39,670 nt of DNA from Chitinophagaceae bacterium UBA5175 (GTDB lineage Bacteria > Bacteroidota > Bacteroidia > Chitinophagales > Chitinophagaceae): contig DHWT01000323.1 of assembly GCA_002413325.1 (NCBI GenBank), forward strand, positions 1 through 39,670, written 5' to 3'. This document shows, piece by piece, positions 1-39,670 of the stretch. Made by a program: the position numbers and the translations under genes. The notes under the pieces were generated by a model, which was not told the DNA's origin, did not search any database, and saw nothing but the letters and a program-made list of their open reading frames with translations. The number at the start of each line of letters is the position of its first letter. Position 1 is the first letter of the stretch.

Positions 1-244
1 CAAAAATTAGCTTTATAAATTTTTTGTTTCTATGCCAAATGTCTTCGTCACCACCGTAGCCTGGATTGAGAGACAATAAGTAAACATTTGCCTTTTCCGG
101 GTTGCCAATAAACGGTTCCGGAAATATTTTCCCAATAATTTTATACTCTGTACTGCCGTTCTTATCATTAAATTTTTGCAGCGTAGCCAGATCATCTACA
201 TTTAATAAATTCCAACCTTCTTTTTTAACTATTTCAAAATTCAT
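1..244 (-). CDS. N-terminal part of a putative uracil-DNA glycosylase superfamily protein (runs off left edge)
   Basis: Absent from the ORF track because no stop is in the window. ATG at 244 reads MNFEIVKKEGW...KIFPEPFIGNPEKANVYLLSLNPGYGGDED..., open to base 1. PEPFxG-x-A-V-LL-LNPG resembles the first UDG-superfamily motif. Confidence 0.6.
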   Translation of the reverse strand, partial: MNFEIVKKEGWNLLNVDDLATLQKFNDKNGSTEYKIIGKIFPEPFIGNPEKANVYLLSLNPGYGGDEDIWHRNKKFIKLIF

Positions 245-350
245 TTTATTTTTGAATACTAAGTGTTGTCGAATTTATATTTTAAGGGAGGGGCTCCCTA
301 AATATATTTAAAATCAATGATTTTCAAGTTAAAGAAAGAAGAGTTTTATG

Positions 351-394
351 ATCCAAGGATAGAAAGTTCGAACTTGGGCTACCAGGAACTACAA
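351..394. repeat. Conserved 44-bp intergenic element, copy 1 (att-like)
   Basis: ATCCA-AGGAT-AGAAA-GTTCGAAC-TTGG-GCTAC-CAGGA-ACTACAA; aligns without gaps to 1286-1329 and 2293-2336. Confidence 0.8.
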
Positions 395-423
395 GTGTTT
401 GAAAATACGAATGACTAATTCAT

Positions 424-1248
424 TTAACTCCAGGTATTGCTACTTCTCACTTCTTTGTTCTTTTTGAAGATAATGAAAAGATAATCACCAAAATCGTTGA
501 TATAATCATCGTTCACTTTTGCAAAACTTTTGTTATCGATGTCATCTTTGAGTTTCTTCAGACCGGTCCTTATTTCGTCCTTATTATTAAGATCCGAAAA
601 CGAAGAAATACCAAATCTAATATTATCATTTAAATAAAGTGACGGATTTAACTTCCCCGAATATAGGAAATGATCTTGCAAACCGATTTGGATATTATAT
701 ATTTCTGTCGAGCAGATGTTAAAACCTCCTTTTAGTGCTGCATCCTCCATGTTTCTTAAAGCAGGCATCTTTTCAATGGACTCTCTCATCATTTTAGGAA
801 AATAATGGTTAAGCCAATAGCCATTCATTTGCTCAGGAAGGGACGTAAAGATTACTAAATGACTATGAATTTTTAAAACCCTATTCAGTTCTAAAAAGGC
901 ATTTTCGATATTTGCCCAATGATGAATTGTAAGTGTAGCCATTCCACCATCAAATGAATTATCTTTTACAGGAATATTTTCCGATGAACCCATTAACCAT
1001 CTAACCGAATTTGATTTTTTGTAAGCTACCTCAAGCATATTTTGCGATGGATCGACTCCGCAAAACTTTATTCCATCTTTAGAAAGTGCGATTGTATAAT
1101 TGCCGGTACCACAACCTATATCTAAATATAATTTCTCTGGTCTGAGGGACAATAAATCAAAAAGCCTTTGGGCTATGTACGGATCGGCTTTCCGAGTGGA
1201 ATTATACCTTTTCCCAATTTTGTCATATAGAATACCTGGCCTTAGCAC
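424..1248 (-). CDS. Class I SAM-dependent methyltransferase
   Basis: Motif I LDIGCGTG, GVDPSQNML, SFD..MATLTIHHW, ELNRVLK. Confidence 0.9.
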   Translation of the reverse strand: MLRPGILYDKIGKRYNSTRKADPYIAQRLFDLLSLRPEKLYLDIGCGTGNYTIALSKDGIKFCGVDPSQNMLEVAYKKSNSVRWLMGSSENIPVKDNSFDGGMATLTIHHWANIENAFLELNRVLKIHSHLVIFTSLPEQMNGYWLNHYFPKMMRESIEKMPALRNMEDAALKGGFNICSTEIYNIQIGLQDHFLYSGKLNPSLYLNDNIRFGISSFSDLNNKDEIRTGLKKLKDDIDNKSFAKVNDDYINDFGDYLFIIFKKNKEVRSSNTWS

Positions 1249-1285
1249 TGGGATTATTTTTATAAAAGATAGTAAAACTTAGCAA

Positions 1286-1329
1286 ATCCATTATCAGAAT
1301 GTTCGAACTCAGGCTACTTGGGTCTGCAA
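1286..1329. repeat. Conserved 44-bp intergenic element, copy 2 (att-like)
   Basis: ATCCA-TTATC-AGAAT-GTTCGAAC-TCAG-GCTAC-TTGGG-TCTGCAA; outer arms GCAAATCCA / TGGGTCTGC form an imperfect inverted repeat (7/9) about GTTC|GAAC. Confidence 0.8.
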
Positions 1330-1337
1330 ATAAATGA

Positions 1338-2003
1338 TTAAATATTTCTCCGGCTTTTTGTTAGAAGTTGATTTTTCTCAATACCATTTATGAATTTGTT
1401 TATTTCATTTACAAAATATTTGCTCTTCAAGTTTAGATTGTAATTGTAATTGATGTTGCTAACAACCTTATTTCCAAATTCCTCTTTAGAAAGGAAATTA
1501 AAGTTGTCTACGTATATTTTGGTTGTATCGTCTCCGATGAACATTTTGGCCTCTTGAATATGGGAATGGTCAACTCTTAAATTACTTATTTCACCTTTCT
1601 CATTGTATACATATTGAAAGCATTTAAACTTTTCATTTTTAATAATTGCTTTTTGTTTGAAGAAATATGTTCATATGCCTTGCATATTAATTTCAATGGT
1701 AGAATAGTCAAAGCAATTGTCCTTTTTTGTTAAATAAGATGTTCCATTTTTTGTCCAAAGGATATAAGTTGGCATATAAATTGTTGCATGGCATCTATTT
1801 TCCTTATTGTCTTTTATTACAACTTCCGAACCTGGCCAATAATCTTGAAAGATTAATATCGAGTCAATCCCATTTGATTTTAGTTGAACTATACATTTTG
1901 CTACTAAAGAATCTAAATGATCTGTAGTCGTATTTTGACCATTGGAGGCCAATGAACGCGAAAGAAAATATAAAAGTATTATCTGCTTTAAAGGTAACAT
2001 CAT
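1338..2003 (-). pseudogene. Exported hypothetical protein interrupted by one in-frame TGA (1671-1673)
   Basis: ORFs 1671..2003 and 1338..1544 are in the same frame and the intervening sequence is open: ...INMQGI*TYFFKQKAIIKNEKFKCF...QEAKMFIGDD. Signal-peptide-like N-terminus. Confidence 0.7.
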
Positions 2004-2292
2004 GAATAGCTTAATGAGAATAATTAATTTGGATAGAAGCGGATCATCGAGATTTTCAAATTGTTAAATAGTAATTATTTAATGGGAAAACCGATAATGA
2101 TTAAAGTATAAGATGTTGATGAGAAGATATTCCATAATGCTTCCGTAATTTTCGATATCTCGTGGTGTCTGATTTCCGGTAGTTCGCTCAATTAAAAATT
2201 ATAAAGACCATTGGTTAAAAATTGATTTTTTTAATATTTGTTAGGTCATTAATTAATTGAATATCAAATCATAGTAGACAGAGATTCGCAAA

Positions 2293-2336
2293 ATCCAGTT
2301 GGAGAAAGTTCGAACCGCTGCTATAGAGGTCGGCTC
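2293..2336. repeat. Conserved 44-bp intergenic element, copy 3 (att-like)
   Basis: ATCCA-GTTGG-AGAAA-GTTCGAAC-CGCT-GCTAT-AGAGG-TCGGCTC. Confidence 0.8.
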
Positions 2337-2475
2337 CTTCTCCGAAAAATTGTATTAGAAATATTTCTAGTTATGAATCCATAAATTTTTAATGATTATG
2401 TGCAATAACTAAAGAATAACCAAACAGTAAAATTTTAATGACAACGCCATTCATTAATAAGTCAAAACGTTTGCC

Positions 2476-3078
2476 ATGTTCAGGAAATACAATCGCTTAT
2501 CTATTTTAATTTTCAGCTTTTCACTCCTGATAGCCCCTTCCGGCTTTGCCCAATCGACGATATTGTCAAAAGGAGAAACAGCGCCCGTATTTACCACCAA
2601 AGCCAGCCTGACCTGCAGTGCATATGATTTTTCACTAAAAAACGCCCTTGCTAAAGGGCCCGTTGTAGTCTATTTCTATCCTTCTGCCTATACCGGCGGC
2701 TGTGATGCGGAAGCACATGCGTTCGCTGAACTCAATGATCAATTTACCGCGGCGGGAGCTACCATTATCGGTGTATCTGCAGACGATATTCAGCGGCTGA
2801 ATGCATTTTCTTCCGATCCGCAATACTGCGCCGGCAAGTTCCCCGTCGCTTCAGATCCCGGAGGCGAAATTGCAGCAAAATACGGCCTGACCATGTCTGC
2901 TCCAAAGGTTGGGATTAAAGACCCGAAGGGCCAGGACCTTACACACGGTTTCATTCCGCGAACCACTTTTGTTATTGATAAAGAAGGTAAAATTGTAGCC
3001 GTCTTTTCATCAGAAACCGACCATATTTCACCTACTGAACATGTTGAAAAGACGCTGGCGATTGTAAAAGGGTTGTAG
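2476..3078 (+). CDS. Peroxiredoxin (BCP/PrxQ-like, AhpC/TSA family), exported
   Basis: VVVYFYPSAYTGGCDAEA (PxxxTxxC), IIGVSAD, RTTFVIDKEGKI; signal peptide. Confidence 0.9.
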   Translation: MFRKYNRLSILIFSFSLLIAPSGFAQSTILSKGETAPVFTTKASLTCSAYDFSLKNALAKGPVVVYFYPSAYTGGCDAEAHAFAELNDQFTAAGATIIGVSADDIQRLNAFSSDPQYCAGKFPVASDPGGEIAAKYGLTMSAPKVGIKDPKGQDLTHGFIPRTTFVIDKEGKIVAVFSSETDHISPTEHVEKTLAIVKGL

Positions 3079-5619: not shown

Positions 5620-5895
5620 TCAGTCATCATAATGGTATCTGCATTGCAGAATATAGCATTTTTGATTTCGGCCCCTGCTCCCTTCCACTTTGTAAACCAG
5701 TCTGTGTTCCCCGGTTATCCTGCGGGACCAATAACCCTTTAAATCGTATCGTAGTGGTTCCGGTCTGCCTAATCCCCGGAATGGGTTTCTGTTTATATCG
5801 TTCAGTAATTCTTTGATCTTCCCAACGATTTCCTGGTCATTTTCCAGCCAGTACCCGAAGTCTTCCCAGGCATTTTCGGTAAATTCAAAATTCAT
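5620..5895 (-). CDS. yoeB: Txe/YoeB family toxin
   Basis: FTENAWEDFGYW, PFRGLGRPEPL, WSRRITGEHRLVY, CRYHY. Confidence 0.95.
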   Translation of the reverse strand: MNFEFTENAWEDFGYWLENDQEIVGKIKELLNDINRNPFRGLGRPEPLRYDLKGYWSRRITGEHRLVYKVEGSRGRNQKCYILQCRYHYDD

Positions 5896-5911
5896 TCGAT
5901 GGAATGGGTAT

Positions 5912-6169
5912 TTACAGATCTTTCAGTTTCACTTTGCGTGTTTGCTTCTTACTGATCTGGTTGATGGACTCCTGTAACCTTGCCCTGTTCTTTTCAGAGG
6001 ACAGCAGATGGCCTGTTTCATTCAACGAATTATATTCTTTGATCGACATGATGACCACGGCATCCTCTTCCGTTGTGCGGGGCACAATGATCACGTCATC
6101 CGATTTACTGACCTCATCCAGGTACTTTTTAATGTTTCCCCGAAGCTGTGTTATGGTAATGGCCTGCAT
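5912..6169 (-). CDS. yefM: Phd/YefM family antitoxin
   Basis: [44 protein letters not shown]; directly upstream of yoeB. Confidence 0.95.
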
Positions 6170-13025: not shown

Positions 13026-13496
13026 TTAATAAAAATCATCAATCCTTTCATGCAGGCTGAGCCTCAGCGAGTCCAGGTATTTGGTGTAACCCGTCTTGCG
13101 GGCGAGGATCTGCTGAAAGGTACGGGAGGTGTTGCCCAGGTCTACATTACCCATTTTTCCGAGACCAGCCAGGATTTTACTAACGGGTGCGTTGCCGTTG
13201 TTGAATGAGCCATGGGCTTTCATGGCATATCCCAGTTCGGTGAGGTAGACCTTGGATGCGGTAAAAACCAGGCCGGTTTCGCCGGGTTGAAAGATGTGCT
13301 GAATGAGATTTTCGCGAAGTTTCTCCAGGCGGTCGATGGTTTTACAGATCAGTTCCGGATAACTGGCGGGCATCCAGGTTTCGAGCTGGAGATTTTGCTG
13401 AAGGCATTTCAGTTCGTAGAGTATCTCGCGAATCGTTTCAAATGCATTCGCGGTCTGGTAATTACCGTTATCCGGTTTTTCAGGGTTGGTGAGCAT
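13026..13496 (-). CDS. rteC: RteC domain-containing regulator
   Basis: FTASKVYLTELGYA..GSFNNG, VDLGNTSRTFQQILARK..TKYLDSL match the RteC C-terminal domain of Bacteroides conjugative transposons. Confidence 0.8.
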   Translation of the reverse strand: MLTNPEKPDNGNYQTANAFETIREILYELKCLQQNLQLETWMPASYPELICKTIDRLEKLRENLIQHIFQPGETGLVFTASKVYLTELGYAMKAHGSFNNGNAPVSKILAGLGKMGNVDLGNTSRTFQQILARKTGYTKYLDSLRLSLHERIDDFY

Positions 13497-18674: not shown

Positions 18675-19616
18675 TTAGTTACAATTTCTTTTAATCAACT
18701 CATAAGAGTAGGAATATCCTAATTCTCCGGCTTTACTAAAATCTAAACAAGCCCGGTCTTTTTGCCCTAAATAAATTTCAATATTTGCCCTATTTAGATA
18801 TGCAGTTATGACTAAATTCTTATTGTCGGAACCAATTTTTATAACAACACTATAATCATCTATCGCACCATGATAGTTTTCTAATGCACCTTTAGCTATT
18901 CCTCTATTAAGATATGCCTCTGTGTAAGATGGATCTGACTGTATTGCTTTATTATAATCTTCAATGCCGCCCTGATAATCATGTTTAGCTCCTTTAAAAT
19001 CCAAGTTTAAATTAGATTTCAAATTCCCGCGTTTAAAAAAAGGGCTGCTTTTTGAAAAACTATAAATGATTGAATTAGTGTAATCATCTTGAGCACCAAT
19101 ATTATCCCCCAATTTTTTAAATTTGATATCTCCTCTCAACTCATAAGCCTCGCCGTATTCGGAATTAAATTCGATTGCCTTATTCAAATCGATTAGAGCA
19201 CCTTGGTAGTCAAATAATTCATATTTTGCTTTGGCCCTGTTCAAATATCCAACATAGTATTTTGGATTTAGGATTAAAACCCTATCAAAATCTAATATTG
19301 CATTTTTATAGTCCTTTTGTTTAAATCTTGTTTCCCCTCTAAACTCATAAGAAGATAAATACGTAGGATCCAATGCTATTGCCTTATTAAAATCAGACAT
19401 TGCCCCCCTATAATCTTCCAAATTACTTTTAGATATTCCCCTATTTACATATGAGGTAATATCTCTAGGGTTATCTTCAATTACTTTACTGAAGAGACGA
19501 ATAGCCTCAACATTGTCCTTACCCATTTGCATTATGGCATCTAAATATAGTTTCGATTGACAATTGGATTTTAGAACAACACAAGTCATTATTAAATAAA
19601 ACAAATATTTTTTCAT
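18675..19616 (-). CDS. Tetratricopeptide repeat protein, exported
   Basis: Repeated YxNRG..K..L.DY.GA..DF.KAI..DP units; terminal ACLDFSKAGELG; signal peptide. Confidence 0.92.
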   Translation of the reverse strand: MKKYLFYLIMTCVVLKSNCQSKLYLDAIMQMGKDNVEAIRLFSKVIEDNPRDITSYVNRGISKSNLEDYRGAMSDFNKAIALDPTYLSSYEFRGETRFKQKDYKNAILDFDRVLILNPKYYVGYLNRAKAKYELFDYQGALIDLNKAIEFNSEYGEAYELRGDIKFKKLGDNIGAQDDYTNSIIYSFSKSSPFFKRGNLKSNLNLDFKGAKHDYQGGIEDYNKAIQSDPSYTEAYLNRGIAKGALENYHGAIDDYSVVIKIGSDNKNLVITAYLNRANIEIYLGQKDRACLDFSKAGELGYSYSYELIKRNCN

Positions 19617-19813
19617 ATATCTGATTTTTATATCCTAAATATCCATGCTATTTCACCAGCATCATAATCTGCCAGAATCTCTCTAACTATAACGTCATTT
19701 ATTATCTCTCAATTTTAAAATTTGATCAAATCTCAATCCCATTTCGATATGATTTTGCTTGATTTTATATCAGTTTGAAACAACTTAGAATTCAAAATAT
19801 AATTCTATCCTTT

Positions 19814-20758
19814 TTAGTAAACTTTTCTCAAAATCACAGCAGACTCGTTTATATCATCAAGCTTATATCTCGATTTCTTTCCAGCCTTAGCTAAAATCAA
19901 AATTTTGCCTTTAACTTCCCACTGTCCGATATCACCTTGTGTCGAAGGGAAATAATTATCCTGGTACGAATAACTTGAATAAAAATCTATAAATCCTAAC
20001 TCTGATCTGTTATAGGGACGACGACATAAAAACAGGCTACTATCTGTTCTGTTTTGTTCGATGTACCATCTGCCAGCCATCTTCTTGGATTCATCATTAA
20101 AATGCGAACCCACATGCACAGTATTTTGAATATTACCATTGCGATAAATTGAAATAGAGTCAGTGATAATAGACATTGGCTCATATCTATTTATATGAAT
20201 CATCGACTTCCCAAATTCCCAAGGCCCTGTTCTCAGGCCTCCCGAATAGTTTCCTATGGAAGAATTCTCAATCCATATCCCTTCCTTTTTCAATGGCCAT
20301 ATACAATTTTTACAAAACCAGTCTTGAGTAAGCCCCTTATCCCCATAAGGATCATTTACCATATCCGGTACAGACAATAAATTATAATCAGCTGGATTAT
20401 CTCTGTCAACCATAAATACGCCAATTCCGGTTACGTTCATATTGTCATCATATCTTACAAAACAAACCGAAGTATCCGAATTCATATAAAATTCCTCAAC
20501 TAATTTGTTTGAAATCCTTGAGAAGACAGACTTCTTAATTAGCCTCTGATTAAAACCAATTCTTAATTCTGTAGTATAATAGATGGAATCAAGCTTGAAA
20601 GAAACTTCACCATTGACAATTTGGATATCTTTTGATTTTTGTGCAAGAAGATTTAAGGCCTGGAATAAGAGAAATAAAAATAATAACTGGATTTTGCGAT
20701 ATTTTACCTTTGTAATGATCGTTATCATATAAGTTTTAACGCGGCAAGTCACTACCAT
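19814..20758 (-). CDS. Exported hypothetical protein (start possibly 20728)
   Basis: 314-aa ORF, hydrophobic leader, KKEGIW / RTGPW MORN-like motifs. Confidence 0.7.
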   Translation of the reverse strand: MVVTCRVKTYMITIITKVKYRKIQLLFLFLLFQALNLLAQKSKDIQIVNGEVSFKLDSIYYTTELRIGFNQRLIKKSVFSRISNKLVEEFYMNSDTSVCFVRYDDNMNVTGIGVFMVDRDNPADYNLLSVPDMVNDPYGDKGLTQDWFCKNCIWPLKKEGIWIENSSIGNYSGGLRTGPWEFGKSMIHINRYEPMSIITDSISIYRNGNIQNTVHVGSHFNDESKKMAGRWYIEQNRTDSSLFLCRRPYNRSELGFIDFYSSYSYQDNYFPSTQGDIGQWEVKGKILILAKAGKKSRYKLDDINESAVILRKVY

Positions 20759-21011
20759 TGAAGAAGTTAAAAACGAGAATAGAAAATAATTATTGCTAAT
20801 AGATTCCAGTTTTCTAGATTTTCAAACTCTATATAAATATTTATACTTAGTCTCTTACTCTGAGGCCTTTTCTAATACCATAGATTAGCCTTTGTAGTCA
20901 TATTGTAAAAACTATTAAAAGATCGTCGATTTTGAACGTAGCCGCTGGCTTTGGATTTACCGACCCCTTATAAACTGAACAGTTTTCTAAATGTAGTTTC
21001 GCCTTCCAATT

Positions 21012-21686
21012 TCAAACCGCCCGTCTTTGGGTATTCGTATGATAGCACTCACGACATTCAGGAATTTTGACACTGGTATCTGCTTCGTCACCACAACTAT
21101 GACAAAAATTCTCTTCGTAATCCGCGTTACCATAAAGATTCCAGGAATTATAACATGATTTACATAAAGGACGTAAGGGGTTATATGAAACAGAGGCCCC
21201 GCATCTTATACAAAACCCGGCATCTTCATGACCGGAATGTCTGCCGGGCATATGAATTTCCACAATGTCACTTTTGTCAATAATATATTCTGCTTCTCTC
21301 TTTGCAGCTTCATAAAGCGCTGTATCTGTTTTTCTGTCTACAAAAACACCCATCTCAATGTTGTTTCTGGCAGAAAAATCAAAGAAATTCATGGAAGAAA
21401 TAACCATTGATTCCTCATTGTAGTAGCATTTGGCATGTAAGTGTTCCAGAAAGCTGATGTGTAAGCCTTTAATCAAAGAAAGGAGCCCGAGCTGTTGGTC
21501 TTTGGGAATTGTCTTTCCAAAAACCAGGTCAACTTTGACCTTAGATTTAATTGCCTCACTAATACGGTCAGCAAAAATTTCTGAGATTTGGATATAGGGG
21601 GAAATCAGGACGATCCTTTGTTTCGCATTTCTGATAATCTTCTCAATACTTGCATTGATCTCTGAGGTTGTGAGGAATTCGGCCAT
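21012..21686 (-). CDS. Phospholipase D-superfamily nuclease-like protein with C-terminal Cys-rich Zn-binding domain
   Basis: Likely start MAEFLTT (21686); ISPYI, HLHAKCYYNE, SSMN, NNIEMG; four CxxC (CIRC, CKSC, CHSC, CREC). Confidence 0.85.
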   Translation of the reverse strand: MAEFLTTSEINASIEKIIRNAKQRIVLISPYIQISEIFADRISEAIKSKVKVDLVFGKTIPKDQQLGLLSLIKGLHISFLEHLHAKCYYNEESMVISSMNFFDFSARNNIEMGVFVDRKTDTALYEAAKREAEYIIDKSDIVEIHMPGRHSGHEDAGFCIRCGASVSYNPLRPLCKSCYNSWNLYGNADYEENFCHSCGDEADTSVKIPECRECYHTNTQRRAV

Positions 21687-21918
21687 AGTCAATGGATTTT
21701 GTCCATTTTGAACGTGAATTCGCACAAACTATTGCATTTTTTAAATTCTGTCGAGTCTTGAAGAAAAACTAAACGTCCCCCTTTGGAGTCTTTAGTTGCG
21801 GCAGAACATTACTTTTGACAATAATGTCTTACTCACTTCTAAGTAAGCATAACATGAAATTCATATCATTGATCTGAAGAGTTATGATCTACAGAATACT
21901 AATTTATTTGGATTAAAA

Positions 21919-21931
21919 CTAATACTATTAG
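21919..21931. promoter_or_regulatory. CTAA-N5-TTAG palindrome (candidate Bacteroidota SOS box) upstream of vsr
   Basis: CTAA-TACTA-TTAG, followed by TA as in both imuA boxes; a near-match CTAA-TTTAT-TTGG lies at 21899-21911. Confidence 0.45.
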
Positions 21932-21970
21932 TATATTAGCATTTTGCCCGGGATATCTACCTTTAACGGG

Positions 21971-22396
21971 ATGGATGTTTTGACTAAGGAACAAAGGAGA
22001 AAAAATATGCAATCTATCCGTAGTACGGATACGAAAGCAGAGATTTCTTTAGCTAAAGCTTTATGGGCAAAGGGCTACAGGTACCGGAAAAACGATAAGA
22101 CAGTTTTTGGAAAACCGGACCTGACTTTTAAAGGATTAAGGATTGCCGTTTTTGTTGACAGTGAATTTTTTCACGGCAAAGACTGGGAAATTCAGAAAAA
22201 CAGAATAAAGACTAACCGGGGGTTCTGGTGGAAGAAGATTGAGGGGAATATGAAACGCGACCTTTTAGTTATCAACAAATTGGAGTCTGATGGGTGGATA
22301 GTATTACGGTTCTGGGATAAGGAAATCCTGAAAAATTCAGCAAATTGCATAAACAAAATAGTGGACGCTGTTAATTTGAGAAAAAATGGCCATTAA
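21971..22396 (+). CDS. vsr: Very short patch repair endonuclease
   Basis: [47 protein letters not shown]. Confidence 0.95.
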
Positions 22397-23588
22397 GTAT
22401 TCAAAAGTCCGTGAGAAACTGAACCTGGAGGTTGATAACAAATCAGACTTTGATCTGGCTAATCTGACCCATTATCTGCAGAATCATAAAAACGGGGTGT
22501 CCCAGTATTTTAGACCGGCTGCAACAAAATATCTATCGCTATTACATGAAAAGCTGAATATTGTCGAAGAACCGGATTTCCAATATTATCTCCCTATTCA
22601 ATGGGATATACCATTCCCTCCTCCCGAAAAACCTAAATTCAAATTCATCGACCTGTTTGCGGGAATTGGCGGTATCAGACTGGCTTACCAGAACCTTGGC
22701 GGTAAGTGTGTCTTTACGAGCGAATGGAATAACTATGCCAAGAAAACTTATGAAGCCAATTTCGGAGAAGTGCCGTTCGGGGATATTACGAAAATTAAAG
22801 AGAGTGACATACCTGATCATGACATCCTGGTTGCCGGATTTCCCTGTCAGCCCTTTTCCATTGCCGGTGTTTCAAAGAAGAATGCTTTAGGCAGAGCACA
22901 TGGTTTTCTGGATGAAACCCAGGGTACTTTGTTTTTCGACCTTGCCCGGATTATTCAGGAAAAACAACCCAAGGCCTTTATGTTGGAAAATGTAAAAAAC
23001 CTCGTTTCCCATGATAAGGGTAAAACTTTTAAGGTTATTTCCAACACATTAAGAGAACTGGGATATTCCATCTACACAAAAGTTTTAGACAGCAAACATT
23101 TTGTTCCCCAGCACAGAGAAAGAATAATTATTGTCGGGTTCAGACAGGAAATATATAAGGGCAGGGAAAAATTCGAATTTCCTGAGTTGCCGGAACCTTC
23201 ACGTACAATGAAAGAGATTCTGGAAACAAAGCCGGATCACAAATACACTTTAAGCAGTCTGCTGTGGCAATATCTTCAGAATTACTCTGCAAAACATAAA
23301 GAGAAAGGAAACGGTTTCGGATTCGGCCTCGTGGATAGGAACGGAATTTCAAGAACCATATCGGCCAGATACTATAAAGACGGTTCAGAAATACTTGTTC
23401 CACAGGAAACTAAAAATCCGCGACGTCTTACTCCCAGAGAATGTGCACGACTGCAGGGATTCCCGGATAGTTTCCTGATCCCGGTATCCGATACCCAGGC
23501 GTACAAGCAGTTTGGGAATTCGGTTACCGTGCCGTTGATTCAGGCGGTTGCAGAAAAAGTTGTCAAAGGACTTTTATCTAATAAATGA
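22386..23588 (+). CDS. dcm: DNA (cytosine-5)-methyltransferase, Dcm/EcoRII-like
   Basis: [44 protein letters not shown]. Confidence 0.95.
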
Positions 23589-24895
23589 ATTTAGCCCGGC
23601 TTCAATCCATTTTTGCCGGTAACGGCTGTCAGAAGATCTATGTAAAAAAATTATCCCCGAACGATAACTCAAAGAATCAGGTTTACCTGGGTGGTAATTT
23701 CGAAATCCTGAATATTTTTCCCCTTTCATCAATTGAAACTGAAAGCGCCGGTGACTGGGAAAGAGAAAGATTTAAGGCGTCACTTAAATTTGGCTGGATA
23801 TCTGAAGAAGGGAAAATCTACCCGGCCCCACACGCACAGTTTATATTATATCCCAAATACCCGGAGGTTAGATTTTCCGGATTTCTCCTGGGCTGTGAAA
23901 AACCACCTTCAGAATTAATGACACAGCGAACGGCTGACAGACTGCTTTTACTTTCGATCACTGATAAAGGGATCGTAATCGGATATGTTACAGGTCCTAC
24001 AACTGAATTAGCAGGCGAATTTGAGAAATTGAACATTATTGATAAACTCGGGGTTTTTTCATTAATAGACCTTCCTCTAACTGTAAATAACAAACAACGT
24101 CTTATTGACGAATTAACCAGAATTCATAAAAAGGACTGGATTTTATCAAAACGTTTGGACAAATATGGTAATCTGTTGCCTTGTGATTCCCCAAATTGTG
24201 GCGGGTTTACATTAGAAGCTGAACTGGGTATAAAACCTAACGGCTTTTCAGAACCGGATTTTCTTGGATGGGAAATCAAGCAATTTGGAGTTACCAATTT
24301 TGAACACTTGGACAACTCTGTTATTACTCTCATGACGCCTGAGCCTACCGATGGATTTTATATATCTGATGGTGCTGAAGCATTTATTAATAAATATGGG
24401 TATGAAGATAAAAACGGAGTAGCCGACAGGAAAAACTTTGGAGGAATTCATAAATCCGGCTTAAAGCATCCCACAACAGGCTTGGAACTTAAGCTCGAAG
24501 GTTTTGACAGCCTGTCCGGGAAAATCAGAAGTGCAGATGGAATGATTGCCCTGGTAGATAAAAATAATAATATAGCAGCTTCCTGGGGTTTTGGTTCGTT
24601 ATTACTGCATTGGAACCGAAAACATAATCAGGCATGTTACCTGCCATCTATAAATAATAAAGAGAAAGAGAGAAAATATAAATATGGGAACAGAGCTATA
24701 TTAGGAATGGGAACCGATTTCCAACTTTTCCTGAAGGAAATGGCAATAGGGCATATTTATTATGATCCGGGCATCAAAATGGAAAACGTTTCTACAAATC
24801 CCAAAATCAAGAAGCGAAGCCAGTTTAGGATTAAGTCCAGTAACTTAAACAATCTCTATAAGGAACATGAAATTATTAATTTGATTGATAAGTAA
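23585..24895 (+). CDS. MvaI/BcnI-family restriction endonuclease
   Basis: [42 protein letters not shown]; ATGA overlap with the MTase. Confidence 0.85.
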
Positions 24896-25096
24896 TAAAG
24901 ATATTTTCCAATTCAACTTTAATATCAATAGTTATATTTAGAAGATATTTAGAAATTTATAAATTTTCAGCACTCAACAACTAGTTAAATCACTAGTGTC
25001 GCAATGAAACTAGACATAGTGGCACAGGGCGGATTTAAAAAGGATTTCCGTGAATGTCAGCTTATATATACATGTTTCCAAATCAAATATTAGCAA

Positions 25097-27415
25097 TTAT
25101 ACTTTATGATTTCTCTCGATATTCTGTAGCATATCATTAATTCTATTTGATAAATCCCTTAAGCCCCTAATCCTTGGATGATTGTAATCAGAGATAACGT
25201 CATTAAGTCTTTCGGAAGCCGTAATTAAGTATTTTTTTCCTTTAATATTTGAAAATTTACTGTAATACTGAATAGCTTGTACTGCAAATATCTTCGCATG
25301 ATAAAATTTTCTTGGATCCCTAATATAACAATCGGTCAATATATTGAGACTTTTCTCAAGAGTTTGTTGAACAACAGGATCACTCGAATCACCATTGATA
25401 TTGGCCTCAAAAAGTATTATTGCGTGTGTGTTTCTAATAGAAAAATGTCTGTCATGAGATAACCTAATGGCCTTGTCAATGGCAACAAATGCCTCTGTGA
25501 ATCTTTTTCTATTTGCCAAATACAATGCTTCTTGCTGCAAGACATAGAAGGAATCATCCTTTTGATAAATATCTTCGTAAAAAGTCATACCCTCCTCCCA
25601 GTTAGGGAAAGCCTTTACTGCAAACTTTGAATCATATCCCATTTTTTTAAATGTATAATAATTGCATATCCGATATGTTCCGACATTTTGTGTAAATCTT
25701 TTGAGTACCCGCTTGAAAATTACAGGAGGTACTTTTTCAATTACCGTTTCTGCAACTATTGTAGACCGTGTTTGAAAATAATCTTGATCATCGTCTACAA
25801 AGCTATTTGGATAATCAGTTAAAAGCGAACCTAATGCTTCGACGGTCGCTATTATATCATTATAATCTGGAATACTATTACTTAAAAATGCATAAGCCAT
25901 ATCAAATGAAACTGGCGTTCTGCAAGTATGAATATAACAGCACATCACAAATAAATCAACCAAATCAATAGACTGTTGAGCAAGTTCTTGAAATATTTGG
26001 TTATATCTTGCCTTAATTGAATTGCCGTGTATGTTTGCATTTACGAACTCAAAGAGACCATTATTTATCGTATGTATTAATTCCTTACCCCTAATTTCCA
26101 ATGGGATTTGATCAAAGATCTTTTGCACATCGATTTGCGTCAAATCAGTAATATCATAAATTTCTACTCTTGAATCAAGTCGATGTGAAATAATATCAAA
26201 ATTGTGTTCCCTGTCAAATCCGATGATTTTTATATTCGGATATCTTTGTAAATACTCAAATGCATCCAAATTATCCTTGAAGCTGTCAATAAATATGATG
26301 CATTTATCGCTACCTAATTTGTTGGCTATGAATTTTGCTTTATTGTAAGGCAAATAACTTGTTACTAGTTTATGCCCATTAAACTGATATGATGCAGCGA
26401 TTTGCATCATTAATGTTGTTTTTCCACTTGCAGGAATTCCAAGAACAAGTATTTCTTTTTTTTTGTTAATTAAATCAATTACATTTTCATAGTGGCTTGT
26501 TCTAACGATGTTACTTGAAAAAACGTCAAACCATATTGGTGGAGCACCTTTATAAAATTCAATAACAGGTCTTACTGAGACTGTTCCGGCTTTTGGAATA
26601 GCTAGTTCACCAAATAATTTAGAGGTACCTTGTCTAAGTATGCCGATTTCTTCTTTCCCCAGTTTTAATCCATCCAAATAATTTAAAAATTTATCAGTGT
26701 TGCTATAAATGATATTGAATCCTAAAGCATCAAAATACTGATCCATGGACTCATTCTTATCACTTAAGATTATCCATTTTGTTTGGTGAAATTTATAGTT
26801 TGAGCCTGGGCTAAAGAGTGCTTCAATTACACCAGCATCACTTAAGCTATAACCCCAAAATAATGTTGGGTATTTTTCAACACCTTGTCTTAAATATTGC
26901 CATGTATCCCTATCTGTAGAAAAGGCTGACACAATTTCATTAGGTGAAAATTTAAATGGCTTTTGAGGGTTCTCTATCGAGCCATGCAATGGAATATAAT
27001 TGATAGATTCCTTTCCTAAAAAAGCTCCGTTAATTGTTACGTCTATGAGGTAGTGTTTGTCACTTTGAGAATAAATTTTTTGAGTAAGATTATCTATGTT
27101 AGTAGTGTATATGTTTTTTACAAAAAATTTATCCAAGGAAAAATATCTAGGATCGAATGACTTGACATTAAATCGATTTAATAAGTAATTTCTAAAGTCA
27201 TTTTTTTTTGTTGAATCTAAAATTGTAGAAATCTTAGGTAAATCCAAAGAATCAGGTACTTTAAATATCTGACTTAATTCCTTTACTAATGTTCCTGCAG
27301 TGGGTAACAATTCATCTTCATGATCTTTCGCTAGAATAGAAAACCCAGCGCCTAAAAACAAATTAATCCCTTGTTTAAGCGCTTCTTCAAAGGTTGATTG
27401 TAGATGAAATTCCAT
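25097..27415 (-). CDS. SIR2-like NADase + STAND-type ATPase + TPR protein (Avs5-like antiphage sensor)
   Basis: LFLGAGFS, YTTNID, LHGS, FWGYSLSD (SIR2); GIPASGKTT Walker A, IIFID Walker B; helical TPR-like C-terminus; 772 aa. Confidence 0.8.
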   Translation of the reverse strand: MEFHLQSTFEEALKQGINLFLGAGFSILAKDHEDELLPTAGTLVKELSQIFKVPDSLDLPKISTILDSTKKNDFRNYLLNRFNVKSFDPRYFSLDKFFVKNIYTTNIDNLTQKIYSQSDKHYLIDVTINGAFLGKESINYIPLHGSIENPQKPFKFSPNEIVSAFSTDRDTWQYLRQGVEKYPTLFWGYSLSDAGVIEALFSPGSNYKFHQTKWIILSDKNESMDQYFDALGFNIIYSNTDKFLNYLDGLKLGKEEIGILRQGTSKLFGELAIPKAGTVSVRPVIEFYKGAPPIWFDVFSSNIVRTSHYENVIDLINKKKEILVLGIPASGKTTLMMQIAASYQFNGHKLVTSYLPYNKAKFIANKLGSDKCIIFIDSFKDNLDAFEYLQRYPNIKIIGFDREHNFDIISHRLDSRVEIYDITDLTQIDVQKIFDQIPLEIRGKELIHTINNGLFEFVNANIHGNSIKARYNQIFQELAQQSIDLVDLFVMCCYIHTCRTPVSFDMAYAFLSNSIPDYNDIIATVEALGSLLTDYPNSFVDDDQDYFQTRSTIVAETVIEKVPPVIFKRVLKRFTQNVGTYRICNYYTFKKMGYDSKFAVKAFPNWEEGMTFYEDIYQKDDSFYVLQQEALYLANRKRFTEAFVAIDKAIRLSHDRHFSIRNTHAIILFEANINGDSSDPVVQQTLEKSLNILTDCYIRDPRKFYHAKIFAVQAIQYYSKFSNIKGKKYLITASERLNDVISDYNHPRIRGLRDLSNRINDMLQNIERNHKV

Positions 27416-35910: not shown

Positions 35911-36645
35911 ATGCTCAGCGCCAAATCAGATATCATCAGCCGCCTGAAAAGAGAGATCCTTCCCCTGGAAGGGTTGAGGGCAACGCGGCCGGAATCGGCC
36001 AGGGGACTGGGTTTAGACTTTATGAGTGAGGCTTTCCCGCAGGGATCCTTCCCCCTGGGTGCCGTGCATGAGCTGATTAATGAGGGAGCGGAATCCGCCA
36101 TAGCCTCCGTAGGTTTTATAGCCGGACTGTTGGGCGGACTGATGAAAAACGGAGGGGCTACAGTCTGGATTGGAAACGCCCCCACCCTCTTTCCACCGGC
36201 ACTCAAAACTTTCGGTATCAATCCCGGCCAGGTGATTTTCATCGACCTGAAAAAAGAAAAGGACCAGCTCTGGGCCATGGAAGAAGCATTGAAATGTTCT
36301 GCTCTCTCCGCCGTCATCGGAGAAATACCGGAACTCAGCTTCACCCACTCCCGCCGGTTCCAGCTCGCGGTGGAACAATCAAAAACAACCGGTTTTATCT
36401 TAAGAAATAGTCCACGCGCTTTAACTCCCAACGCCTGCATCGCGCGTTGGAAAATAAAACCTTTGCCTTCGATCAATGAAGAGGGACTGCCCGGTCTCGG
36501 TCACCCGGCCTGGGAAGTCAGTCTCCTGAAAATACGCAACGGCCGCCCGCAGTCCTGGATCGTAGAATGGAAAAACGGGAAATTCCGGCAGGTCGCAGAA
36601 GCCGCACCGGCCATCATCCTCCACCCCACCCGAAAAACAGGATGA
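35911..36645 (+). CDS. imuA: Error-prone repair protein ImuA
   Basis: GAVHE, LWAMEEALKC, SRRFQLAVE, ARWKIKPLPS; first gene of imuA-imuB-dnaE2. Confidence 0.92.
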   Translation: MLSAKSDIISRLKREILPLEGLRATRPESARGLGLDFMSEAFPQGSFPLGAVHELINEGAESAIASVGFIAGLLGGLMKNGGATVWIGNAPTLFPPALKTFGINPGQVIFIDLKKEKDQLWAMEEALKCSALSAVIGEIPELSFTHSRRFQLAVEQSKTTGFILRNSPRALTPNACIARWKIKPLPSINEEGLPGLGHPAWEVSLLKIRNGRPQSWIVEWKNGKFRQVAEAAPAIILHPTRKTG

Positions 36646-36646
36646 G

Positions 36647-38173
36647 ATGCCGCGCTTCGTCACCATATGGTTCCGTCACCTGAAGACGGACTGGCAGTCC
36701 GTCCGCCAGCCCACCCTTCGCTCCCTTCCCTTCGTACTCGCCATACCCGATCACGGTCGCAAGATCATCACAGCTGCCAACCCCCTCGCCCAGCAACAGG
36801 GCATCGAACCGGGCATGGTCGTTGCCGACGCGAAGGCCATCTTTCCTTCGCTCAAAATCATCGACGACGATCCCTCTCTCCCTGAAAAATTATTAAAATC
36901 CATCGCCAAATACTGTATCCGCTATACCGATACCGTCGCCATCGACCTGCCCGACGGATTAATATTAGACGCGACCGGATGCGCACACCTCTGGGGAGGA
37001 GAGAAAAACTATATCGCTGAAATAAATTCCCGTTTAACCAATCGCGGTTACGATGTACGCGCCACCATGGCCGACACCATCGGCGCAGCCTGGGCCATCG
37101 CCCATTATGGCGGTTCATCACCCATCATAGAACCCGGAAAACAGATGGAAGCGCTATTGAATCTTCCACCCTCAGCACTCAGATTAGAACCCGAGGTCAC
37201 CGACCGTCTCTATAAACTCGGTCTCCGTAAAATTAGCCAGTTCATCAACATGCCACGTGCTGCCCTGCGCCGGCGTTTTGGTCAGCATACGATTCTCAGA
37301 TTGGATCAGGCCCTCGGCAACGCAGATGAACCCATCACACCCATCATCCCGCCCGAACCCTTTCGTGAGCGGCTGCCCTGCCTGGAACCCATCGTCACAC
37401 TGACGGGAATCGAAATCGCACTCCAAAGAATGCTTAACGCCCAAAGCCTGACACTTAACGCTAAAGGCATGGGCTTACGGAAAGCTGTTTTTACATGCTA
37501 TCGAATAGACAATAAAGTAGAGCAGGTAGAAATCGGAACCAGTCGCGCTACGGCCAACCCGAAACACCTCTTCAAACTCTTCGAAGAAAAAATACAAACC
37601 ATCGAACCGGCCCTGGGTATCGAACTCTTCATACTCGACGCCACCAGGACAGAAAAAATAATCAACCGCCAGGAATCCATCTGGTCAACAACAGGCGGTC
37701 TCGAGGACCCCGCCATCGCGGAACTGGTGGATCGTCTTTCCAACCGCTTTGGATCATCACCCATCAAACGTTATCAGCCGGATGAACGGCATATGCCGGA
37801 GAATTCTTTTAAACCCGTAGTGAATCTGCTTGAATCAATGGTTGACGGTTCACGGTTGACGGTTGACGGATTTCAGTGGACGACTGACAGACTTAGGCCG
37901 ATCAGCCTGCTTTCTCGTCCGGAACCGATAGATGTAACAGCGCCGATACCCGACTACCCGCCCATGAACTTCCGCTACCGGAACAAACTGCATAAAATAA
38001 AAAAAGCCGACGGGCCGGAACGGATCGAACCGGAATGGTGGATCAGCGAGGGGCGCCACCGTGACTACTACGCCGTGGAAGACGAAGAAGGCGGTCGCTA
38101 CTGGATCTTCCGCGCGGGCCACTACGCGGCGGACCGTTCCCCGAACTGGTTCATCCACGGATATTTTGCTTAA
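36647..38173 (+). CDS. imuB: ImuB, inactive Y-family DNA polymerase
   Basis: GIEPGM.VADA, DGLILDATGCAHLWGGE, LRLDQALG, GPERIEPEWW, RDYY, RYWIFR. Confidence 0.93.
   Translation: MPRFVTIWFRHLKTDWQSVRQPTLRSLPFVLAIPDHGRKIITAANPLAQQQGIEPGMVVADAKAIFPSLKIIDDDPSLPEKLLKSIAKYCIRYTDTVAIDLPDGLILDATGCAHLWGGEKNYIAEINSRLTNRGYDVRATMADTIGAAWAIAHYGGSSPIIEPGKQMEALLNLPPSALRLEPEVTDRLYKLGLRKISQFINMPRAALRRRFGQHTILRLDQALGNADEPITPIIPPEPFRERLPCLEPIVTLTGIEIALQRMLNAQSLTLNAKGMGLRKAVFTCYRIDNKVEQVEIGTSRATANPKHLFKLFEEKIQTIEPALGIELFILDATRTEKIINRQESIWSTTGGLEDPAIAELVDRLSNRFGSSPIKRYQPDERHMPENSFKPVVNLLESMVDGSRLTVDGFQWTTDRLRPISLLSRPEPIDVTAPIPDYPPMNFRYRNKLHKIKKADGPERIEPEWWISEGRHRDYYAVEDEEGGRYWIFRAGHYAADRSPNWFIHGYFA
37840..37888 (+). 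repeat. Heptamer tandem repeat (GGTTGAC) inside imuB
   Basis: GGTTGAC GGTTCAC GGTTGAC GGTTGAC followed by degenerate units. Confidence 0.7.
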
Positions 38174-38177
38174 CACA

Positions 38178-39670
38178 ATGGAATACACCGAACTCGAAAT
38201 AACGTCCAACTTCAGCTTCCTCCGCGGCGCTTCCCACCCGGAAGAAATCGTCGAATACGCGGCCTCCCTGGGCTATTCCGAAATCGGCATCACGGATAGG
38301 AACAGTCTCGCGGGGATCGTACGCGCGCATGTCGCGGCAAAAGCCTCCGGCATGCGGATCCTGCCTGCCGCGCGACTGGACTTCACCGACGGTCCTCCGC
38401 TGCTCGCCTACCCGGCTAACCTGGAGGGCTATACGCAGTTGTCCGGTCTGCTCACCACCGGCAACCTGCGTGCAGAAAAAGGAAAATGTGAGCTCCATAC
38501 GGCCGATGCCTTTGTCGCGCTGAAAGACCTGCGTCTCATCGCCATTCCGCCCACGGCCCTCAATGCGGAATTTGCATTCGACCCTTGCTTCGAAAAAAAT
38601 CTTTCCATCTATCGGGAAGTCTTTGGTGAACGATTATACCTCGCCGCTACCCGCCGTTATCTGGGCGACGACGCCAAACAGCTCTTCCGTCTCGCGCAGA
38701 TCTCGAAACGTTTGGCCATTCCGCTGGTCGCCACCAACGATGTGCATTACCATAACCCGGAACGCCGTCAGCTGCAGGATGTGCTCACCTGCATCCGTGA
38801 GAAATGCACCATTCAAAATGCCGGATACAAACTGCAACAGAACGCCGAGCGTCACCTGAAGTCAGTCGCCGAAATGAAAAGGCTCTTCCTCCACTATCCC
38901 GAAGCCATCCGCGCTACGCAGGAGATCGTGGAAGCCTGTCAGTTCTCTTTAAGCGAATTAAAATATGTATATCCCGAAGAACTCACCACCGAAGGCAGGA
39001 CCCCGCAGGAAGAGATCGTCCATCTCGCCTGGAAGGGCGCGCGGGAACATTACGGAGAAATCATTCCGGAAACCATTTCAAAAAATATACGCTATGAACT
39101 CCGCTTCATCGAAGAGATGAACTACGCGGCCTATTTTCTCACGGTCTACGATATCGTGCGCTATGCCCGCTCGCAGGGCATCCTCTGCCAGGGCCGCGGA
39201 TCGGCGGCCAACAGCACCATCTGTTACTGTCTCGGCATCACCAGCGTGGACCCCACGAAATTTGATCTCTTATTCGAACGCTTCATCTCCTCGGCGCGCA
39301 ACGAACCGCCCGATATCGACGTGGACTTTGAACACGAGCGCCGCGAAGAAGTGATCCAGTACATCTACAATAAATACGGGCGCGAACGGGCCGCCATCGT
39401 AGCCACCGTAACACAGGAGCGGCAGCGTGGTTCCATCCTTGACGTGGGTAAGGCCATGGGTCTCTCGGTGGATACGATCAAACAGATCTCTTCTTCCATC
39501 CGGGAGTTCAGGCCCGAATTCCTGGAAGGCAAACTCGGGGCCGGACAGGCGTTGAATCCGCTGGATCCTTTATTACGAAAAACTTTAGAACTCACCGGAC
39601 AGCTCATGGGATTTCCGCGGCAGCTCGGCATGCATACCGGCGGATTCGTGATCACCCAGGGGAAATTATC
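38178..39670 (+). CDS. dnaE2: Error-prone DNA polymerase DnaE2 (runs off right edge)
   Basis: MEYTELEITSNFSFLRGASHPEE, ITDRNSLAG, ATNDVHYH, CQGRGSAANS, LLFERF, EPPDIDVDFEH, GFPRQLGMHTGG. Confidence 0.95.
   Translation, partial: MEYTELEITSNFSFLRGASHPEEIVEYAASLGYSEIGITDRNSLAGIVRAHVAAKASGMRILPAARLDFTDGPPLLAYPANLEGYTQLSGLLTTGNLRAEKGKCELHTADAFVALKDLRLIAIPPTALNAEFAFDPCFEKNLSIYREVFGERLYLAATRRYLGDDAKQLFRLAQISKRLAIPLVATNDVHYHNPERRQLQDVLTCIREKCTIQNAGYKLQQNAERHLKSVAEMKRLFLHYPEAIRATQEIVEACQFSLSELKYVYPEELTTEGRTPQEEIVHLAWKGAREHYGEIIPETISKNIRYELRFIEEMNYAAYFLTVYDIVRYARSQGILCQGRGSAANSTICYCLGITSVDPTKFDLLFERFISSARNEPPDIDVDFEHERREEVIQYIYNKYGRERAAIVATVTQERQRGSILDVGKAMGLSVDTIKQISSSIREFRPEFLEGKLGAGQALNPLDPLLRKTLELTGQLMGFPRQLGMHTGGFVITQGKL

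Follow-up and report, generated by a model that had tools for sequence, protein, structure and literature searches.

Islands specific for ssrA lie in tandem behind this stable RNA gene in Dehalococcoides, 15 of them without an integration module, and the report on them (McMurdie et al. 2011, PMC3146451) describes a serine recombinase of ~540 residues, DsiB, whose gene overlaps the att site with its 3' end and lacks its own stop codon as long as it lies in the island; the authors suggested that the gene is perhaps complete on the circle only. For streptococci, PMC7563491 describes recombinase-less cis-mobilizable elements (CIMEs and microCIMEs) of 1.2–13 kb, or of 130–220 bp where geneless, which arose by accretion and stand in tandem at a target gene with the most decayed copy the most distal. 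In Prochlorococcus, tycheposons carry mostly tyrosine recombinases (910 of 937) and have partial tRNA copies as boundaries (bioRxiv 10.1101/2020.12.28.424599). Here we analyse a 39,670-bp contig of Chitinophagaceae bacterium UBA5175 (DHWT01000323.1 in assembly GCA_002413325.1; hereafter the window), at the left end of which genes are separated by three copies of a conserved site. Sequence comparison with relatives indicates that these repeats are very probably the right ends of units that a large serine recombinase (LSR) inserted, stacked one behind the other, at the 3' end of a tRNA-Arg(CCT) gene. The system is a variant of tandem accretion at tRNA genes, with the DsiB islands and CIME accretion as its closest known counterparts.

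Like the DsiB islands, the system has a recombinase gene that overlaps an att site and lacks its own stop codon. Unlike them, it does not use an ssrA target with a 20-bp direct repeat: the targets are the 3' ends of tRNA genes of several isotypes, with no long repeat, the units mostly measure 0.6–3 kb, and codon-level constraint on a 21-residue tail can be demonstrated. Nor was a DsiA-like second recombinase gene seen beside the LSR; a MerR-like helix-turn-helix (HTH) gene is found instead. With tycheposon islands the system shares serial tRNA integration in which newer elements displace older ones inward, and it differs in recombinase type and boundaries. The original prediction, made from the letters of the window, was of serial gene capture in a new gene-cassette array. 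"New" was overstated, because serial integration at tRNA genes is already known, and de novo capture of genes was not supported. No description of such an array or tail in Bacteroidota was found in the searched literature, which largely excluded subscription papers and supplements (TIGER and Islander may list the elements).

Three copies of a conserved site in the genome

The window is the entire contig C301 of a 3.3-Mb assembly with 331 contigs and a completeness of 77.5% (genomes, contigs and loci are referred to by handles beginning with G, C and L), and the array is therefore truncated at its left. The three predicted motif copies at 351, 1286 and 2293 were confirmed, the same pattern occurring 0 times in 100 shuffles; the count of 24 invariant positions in the 44-bp alignment was reproduced, and the spacings of 935 and 1007 bp hold. 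When a 66-bp matrix trained on 75 sites, all from other genomes, was applied to the whole assembly, it returned exactly the three window copies, at 54, 49 and 39 bits, and no score above 12 bits in the reversed genome used as control; a weak match on C304 was lost when this independent matrix was applied. The unit length of 44 bp had to be revised, as conservation covers ~66 bp, from a conserved stop codon on the left to 392, 1327 and 2334, which is two bases short of the end of the 44-mer. The statement that each site follows a stop codon applies to sites 1 and 2 (29 and 8 bp from the 44-mer) and fails for site 3, which has no stop codon before it and a divergent, plus-strand peroxiredoxin gene 139 bp beyond. 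The outer arms, predicted to be symmetric, showed neither a conserved inverted repeat nor folding (mean z 0.02 for both strands of 77 sites, 5% of strands below −2), and the predicted absence of attC ends and of a long hairpin was borne out, with the boxes in 0 of the 77 sites. Rfam and ARAGORN gave no match in the window.

Site 1 (324..392, plus strand) appears to be an element-derived att arm in an attR-type junction, with GTTCGAAC at 366–373 and the putative crossover dinucleotide AC at 391–392; its minus strand encodes 22 residues followed by a stop. Site 2 (1262..1327, plus strand), of the same arm type, has GTTCGAAC at 1301–1308 and a terminal GC in place of AC, and its minus-strand frame is open with a displaced stop (34 residues, the stop ending at 1223). 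Site 3 (2269..2334, plus strand), with GTTCGAAC at 2308–2315 and again a terminal GC, would be the last, tRNA-distal arm and encodes the canonical 21 residues plus stop. All three sites keep the frame.

A large serine recombinase at the 3' end of tRNA-Arg(CCT)

The original prediction favoured an LSR-like system over the integron integrase IntI and an enzyme encoded outside the window, and it named a tRNA 3' end as something to look for; relatives agree with it. The enzyme adjoining the array in relatives has Resolvase and Recombinase domains and is not IntI (no genome-wide search for IntI was made), and LSR genes run into the 3' end of tRNA-Arg(CCT): an LSR of ~536 residues ends within it in G120, G025, G122, G111, G088 and G076. 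Ahead of the LSR gene lies one of HTH type, whose 318-residue forms are MerR-like. Six segments have the order tRNA-Arg, LSR, cargo and site, with a length of 8.8–14.3 kb, and the site is the first boundary past the cargo. Among 98 LSR homologs the catalytic motif Y-x-R-V-S is invariant and no cysteine is, which corresponds to a degenerate zinc ribbon, and the structure model of a natural homolog found its best match in serine integrase–att complexes (E 3.5e-15). Close LSR relatives lie at tRNA-Arg, tRNA-Gln and tRNA-Leu genes and at one non-tRNA site (L107), and every junction ends in AC.

The gene order also recurs without an LSR: tRNA-Arg(CCT) stands between a glyoxalase gene and site-bounded units, which are followed by a peroxiredoxin gene in several loci (L037, L040, L114 and L119). 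In the assembly studied here, the glyoxalase gene and tRNA-Arg(CCT) are on C44, and the sites and the peroxiredoxin gene on C301. From the gene order in relatives, we infer that C44 and C301 adjoin. The assembly breaks 600 bp behind the tRNA, at a multicopy repeat (G000 C44:2830–3069) that also terminates C211, C272 and C178 and is probably the end of an insertion sequence (IS).

The non-tRNA site of L107 (L107:660–720) holds a second, frameshifted LSR copy of G120, inserted with tRNA-like spacing where a gene for an RsmB-type methyltransferase ends (3' end). At L181:4120–4300, an LSR of 50% identity adjoins an arm that is not from a tRNA, again with tRNA-like spacing, and its tail ends in a similar D-L motif. 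Judged from L181, other LSR subfamilies may have a different arm design.

Crossover position and site architecture

To locate the breakpoint, the DNA following 63 sites and 42 tRNA-Arg ends was compared. A deaminase unit, found after the tRNA in G116 and twice after a site in G120, is 97–98% identical from the first base past CTAC. Likewise, the tRNA of L087 and a site of G104 have the same 1405-bp unit behind them (1385 of 1405 positions identical), and the left end of this unit also stands behind the own tRNA of G104 (163 of 166 identical). The segment between the palindrome and CTAC does not move with the downstream DNA. The predicted breakpoint between TC and GA in the palindrome core was thus not upheld: homology begins at the final AC, which places the crossover at the right end of the motif. 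The core shared by hybrid att junctions is CTAC at most; junctions with the same LSR-side sequence vary at the base before AC. If the 2-bp overlap established for serine recombinases is assumed here, this would narrow the core to AC, the discriminator base and C74 of the tRNA.

The palindrome GTTCGAAC is a copy of the tRNA T-loop word and the best conserved block of the site (0.93–0.98 per column). Counted back from the end, GTTCGA begins at 27 bases in the sites and at 22 bases in tRNA-Arg and in the secondary site of L107. By the same 5 bp the outer motif is displaced in attP relative to attB arms (PMC3783163), and GTTCGA is presumably the motif for the zinc-ribbon domain. With the Listeria LI and A118 integrases, the system has in common domain order, fold, a short crossover and this 5-bp P/B shift (PMC3783163); it differs in that the att lies inside the integrase gene, no right arm is conserved, the zinc ribbon is degenerate and several tRNAs are targeted. 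The motif is not the whole symmetric att site of the original prediction: it comprises one arm, with nothing conserved to its right, and the LSR-side arms are alike as coding sequence only. A symmetry centre at the A-run left of the palindrome, with GTAGA and TCTAC as ends, was considered and dropped because conservation on the left is codon-patterned and the breakpoints lie at the right end.

Coding capacity of the site

Read on the minus strand from the core, the site encodes V-D-x-x-S-x-x-S-N-F-x-x-x-D-L-x-x-(I/L)-x-x-L-stop, a tail of 21 residues that is hydrophobic at 15, 18 and 21. This frame is open through 21 codons in 60 of 64 sites, compared with 56% in shuffles, and the remaining frames are closed; a stop follows at codon 22 in 37 of the 64. 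In the set of 77 sites, codon 22 is a stop in 43 (23 TGA, 14 TAA, 6 TAG), and in these the entropy of codons 11–21 increases from second (1.20) over first (1.39) to third positions (1.72). A natural junction of attP type was seen in L172, where ~50 bp of the 3' end of an LSR gene continue in frame into a site. Among the 120 LSR homologs listed out of 811, the C-terminus consists of tRNA-antisense residues in 106, of a tail in the same register in two and of other sequence in 12. The site peptide is thus likely the detached tail of the LSR, and the open frame, the stop, the L172 fusion and the tail-type homologs together suggest that attP likely lies inside the LSR gene. Tyrosine integrase genes split by their own attP, with a C-terminus that integration alters, occur in the Myxococcus phage Mx8 and in archaeal SSV1-type elements; we know of no stack of detached tails for such integrases.

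Distribution of the site in relatives

A strict pattern with two mismatches returned no copy in 60 relatives; the copies in relatives were found with three mismatches and a refined pattern. Within the genus (Chitinophagaceae), 25 of 104 genomes, the one studied here among them, carried the refined pattern, with one control match; of the 57 high-quality genomes, 12 did. Elsewhere in the family the pattern was present in 13 of 400 genomes, with two control matches. An exact-match scan of the genome collection yielded 30 loci, of which 28 are labelled Bacteroidota, mostly Chitinophagaceae or Puia; the two others (L077 and L086) scored below 20 bits and were taken as chance, as were two pattern matches on viral contigs, neither above 14 bits. 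A Pedobacter-labelled locus (L087) was considered as an inter-family transfer; its 556-bp flank is identical to G104, and it is therefore no evidence of transfer between families. Copies in relatives are mostly clustered on the same strand, often behind tRNA-Arg(CCT). The terminal bases of the site match the neighbouring tRNA (CTAC for Arg, CGAC for Pro, GCAC for Leu and CCGC for Ser). Site variants behind tRNA-Pro(GGG, CGG), tRNA-Arg(CCG), tRNA-Leu(CAG) and tRNA-Ser(TGA) were seen in L117, L168, L173, L249, L250 and L252.

Some loci illustrate the range of arrangements. At L091:6607–11757, where there is no LSR, four units bounded by sites (715, 2635, 878 and 850 bp) stand behind tRNA-Arg(CCT), and at L240:3222–3499 (G500) two sites stand 234 bp apart with no gene between them and an LSR fragment 4.5 kb off. 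In G120, two sites (L106:7347–8955 and L032:13366–14974) are split by an IS110-family element of ~1.58 kb, the copies being 95% identical and both having GTTCGAAC on one side of the insertion point and the A-run on the other; L106 has a second IS110, next to which another left arm stands orphaned. The element looks like an IS110 with these att arms as its target. IS110-family elements also insert into integron attC sites.

Site-bounded units and their cargo

The units were surveyed in 45 distinct segments, each running from a tRNA or a site to the site at its far end; long segments may hide weak sites. An LSR was found in six of them, all directly behind a tRNA and none behind a site. The other 39 have a median length of 1553 bp, 31 being no longer than 3 kb, and contain one open reading frame (ORF) of at least 80 residues in 19 cases, two in seven and none in one. 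The single co-oriented genes of the original prediction therefore hold as a tendency only: in the 19 segments with one ORF, 13 point toward the previous junction and six toward their own site. Gene content between sites differs among genomes, as had been anticipated. A scan of 71 of the 144 listed ORF references and of 30 other proteins revealed toxin-antitoxin pairs, GNAT acetyltransferases, thioredoxin-like and beta-lactamase-fold proteins as cargo of the relatives' units and no relaxase; restriction-modification and other defence genes are carried by the LSR elements. LSR 3' sequence starts the downstream DNA at one of 84 sites, compared with 11 of 44 tRNA-Arg ends, and the parent's left end is kept only in G094, where two units have just ~50 bp of LSR end. 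Simple deletion derivatives would keep the LSR 3' end, and the left ends of most small units are therefore of other origin, perhaps from cryptic sites or from DNA that happened to stand behind the tRNA.

Proposed mechanism and alternative explanations

A new unit would insert at the 3' end of tRNA-Arg(CCT), likely pushing older units away from the tRNA. The site would be the P arm of an attP within the LSR gene, and integration would replace the LSR tail by ~12 tRNA-antisense residues, leaving the element's own tail at its far end. If recognition is mainly via left arms, any earlier unit could serve as right arm and stacking could continue. Units without an LSR, both window units included, may move as passengers or small circles when LSR is supplied, and the tail swap might regulate the LSR. 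We infer that the sites originate from this LSR. Those of the window may be inactive, because no LSR is detectable in the assembly and two of the three end in GC.

Several observations weigh against this reading. No LSR was found in the 77.5%-complete assembly, public contigs do not bridge C44 and C301, and the DNA behind the tRNA on C44 resembles a terminator, with no matchable end of a site-bounded unit; some sites of relatives have neither tRNA nor LSR in the retrieved DNA (e.g. L032, L038 and L166). A right-arm motif is absent in 61 sites (at most 0.13 bits per column), unlike in canonical LSR sites, GTTCGAAC lies 19–26 bp from the presumed centre, 2–3 bp beyond the motif of the Listeria integrase (16–24), and nine of 77 sites, two of them in the window, end in GC. 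The fit of the two tail-type homologs to the consensus is weak (9.8 bits at best), and the structure model does not resolve the tail, for which the predicted local distance difference test score is near 50. In the public contigs of four runs no joint was seen at any site, and neither recombination nor a circle or strain variant was seen.

The small units might instead be decayed LSR islands of the CIME type that lost the recombinase by deletion and never move alone, an account that would dispute the cassette step and not the identity of the site. We consider it doubtful, although it has points in its favour: intact elements invariably stand next to the tRNA, with the LSR-less units farther out (LSR six times after a tRNA, 0 times after a site), an order that is the rule for streptococcal CIMEs (PMC7563491), the two G094 units retain just that short LSR end, window gene 2 is broken, two window sites have an altered core and some sites contain IS110 insertions. 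The absence of a recombinase from 39 of 45 segments, the tandem position at the target and the 234-bp geneless interval of L240 also resemble CIMEs as described there. CIMEs, in the same description, keep both parental att ends, whereas 83 of 84 site junctions lack the parent's left end, and deletion derivatives should retain the LSR 3' end at their left edge. Moreover, LSR-less units occupy first as well as internal positions with 97–99% identity, and the tail frame is still open in most of their sites.

The remaining alternatives concern the nature of the site. It is very unlikely to be a symmetric 45–50-bp site at which the palindrome serves as the TC/GA crossover core for site-by-site recombination: GTTCGAAC is indeed the best conserved block, but it copies the tRNA T-loop word, and where the same DNA follows different junctions homology begins 20 bp to its right. 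We give slightly less credence still to a transcription-factor site, a terminator or a dispersed repeat resembling repetitive extragenic palindromes, which would fit the intergenic location and some lone sites away from tRNA genes; just three clustered copies on one strand in 3.3 Mb, no hairpin or Rfam match, codon-patterned conservation with all three stop codons and the precise link to LSR elements and tRNA ends speak otherwise. Least probable of all is an atypical integron attC or a cluster of attC sites lacking integron integrases (CALIN), which the array layout and the toxin-antitoxin pairs and acetyltransferases in relatives bring to mind, for RYYYAAC...GTTRRRY occurs in none of the 77 sites on either strand, a folding signal is lacking and the linked enzyme is a serine recombinase. 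Likenesses to integrons and CALINs (PMC8618304) are a polar array of mostly one- or two-gene units with the newest by a fixed primary site and the persistence of arrays without the enzyme. The system differs from these in having no IntI, attC boxes or hairpin, a mixed gene orientation, a tRNA end as primary site and an enzyme carried on the mobile unit.

Returning to serial LSR insertion, a bolder version, which we consider possible but less likely than not, would make the system an integron analogue with a split serine integrase, which reads one arm of each site, captures arbitrary adjacent DNA in small units that lack a recombinase, piles these up behind tRNA genes and uses the spare 21-residue tail on every unit as a direction switch; if so, the distal site chosen for excision would supply the C-terminus that switches between chromosomal and circular states. 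If serial insertion is right, soil Chitinophagaceae gather toxin-antitoxin, acetyl- and methyltransferase, restriction-modification and other defence genes through this site. Only 2–4 bases are repeated, and island finders based on tRNA direct repeats would therefore likely miss these elements. The tail, defined here from dozens of natural copies, bears on the question raised for DsiB in 2011, whether a tail swap regulates a serine integrase whose gene contains its own cleavage site, and an LSR family that targets the T-loop word and discriminator–C74 of several tRNAs with any right arm would be of interest as an integration tool.

Genes and flanks in the window

The original prediction described one AT-rich gene in each of the two intervals, co-oriented with the gene left of copy 1. 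The shared orientation (minus strand) and the low GC content (0.33, 0.35 and 0.29, compared with 0.45 for the genome) were confirmed; the gene of interval 2 is broken. The first gene (2..244, minus strand), a cargo gene of which the contig contains the 5' part, matches no Pfam family; a fairly confident score accompanied a uracil-DNA-glycosylase-like assignment, which is a weak lead only, the family being present on 20% of cluster members. Unit A (393..1327, 935 bp from junction to junction), without a recombinase, contains a gene for a class I S-adenosylmethionine-dependent methyltransferase (424..1248, minus strand; PF08241, E 2e-21) with a patchy distribution in the family, where 14 of 300 further genomes have it at 40–56% identity. 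Unit B (1328..2334, 1007 bp) contains a 221-codon gene without known family (1338..2003, minus strand), which is interrupted by a TGA at 1671–1673 that has the same letters in a re-assembly of a possible source run. Its first ~110 bp are 79–82% identical to the left end of the 1405-bp unit of G104 and L087, which has other cargo. A DNA search with window positions 1–2480 in 103 genomes of the genus found no near-identical copy of unit A or B, the matches being short or 67–83% identical.

Beyond site 3, the stretch 2335..2349 (plus strand) resembles the DNA after tRNA-Arg(CCT) on C44 and after the last site in G123 and G116, and is likely what remains of the chromosomal side that the target had originally. 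The peroxiredoxin (AhpC/TSA) gene (2476..3078, plus strand) belongs to the chromosomal flank; in L037, L040, L114 and L119 it is downstream of tRNA-Arg(CCT).

Further along the window, a YefM-YoeB toxin-antitoxin pair is found at 5620–6169. An AT-rich region (18675–27415) coding for a TPR protein, a PLD-domain protein, a C-5 methylase with an MvaI/BcnI endonuclease and a SIR2-STAND NTPase is likely a defence island, and the GC-rich right end (35911–39670, 0.51–0.57), where the contig breaks off within a gene for DNA polymerase III alpha and which also has an ImuB-like (IMS) gene, is likely an imuA-imuB-dnaE2 mutagenesis cassette. Finally, 13026–13496 encodes an RteC-domain protein; such genes are a usual part of the regulation of conjugative elements in Bacteroidota.

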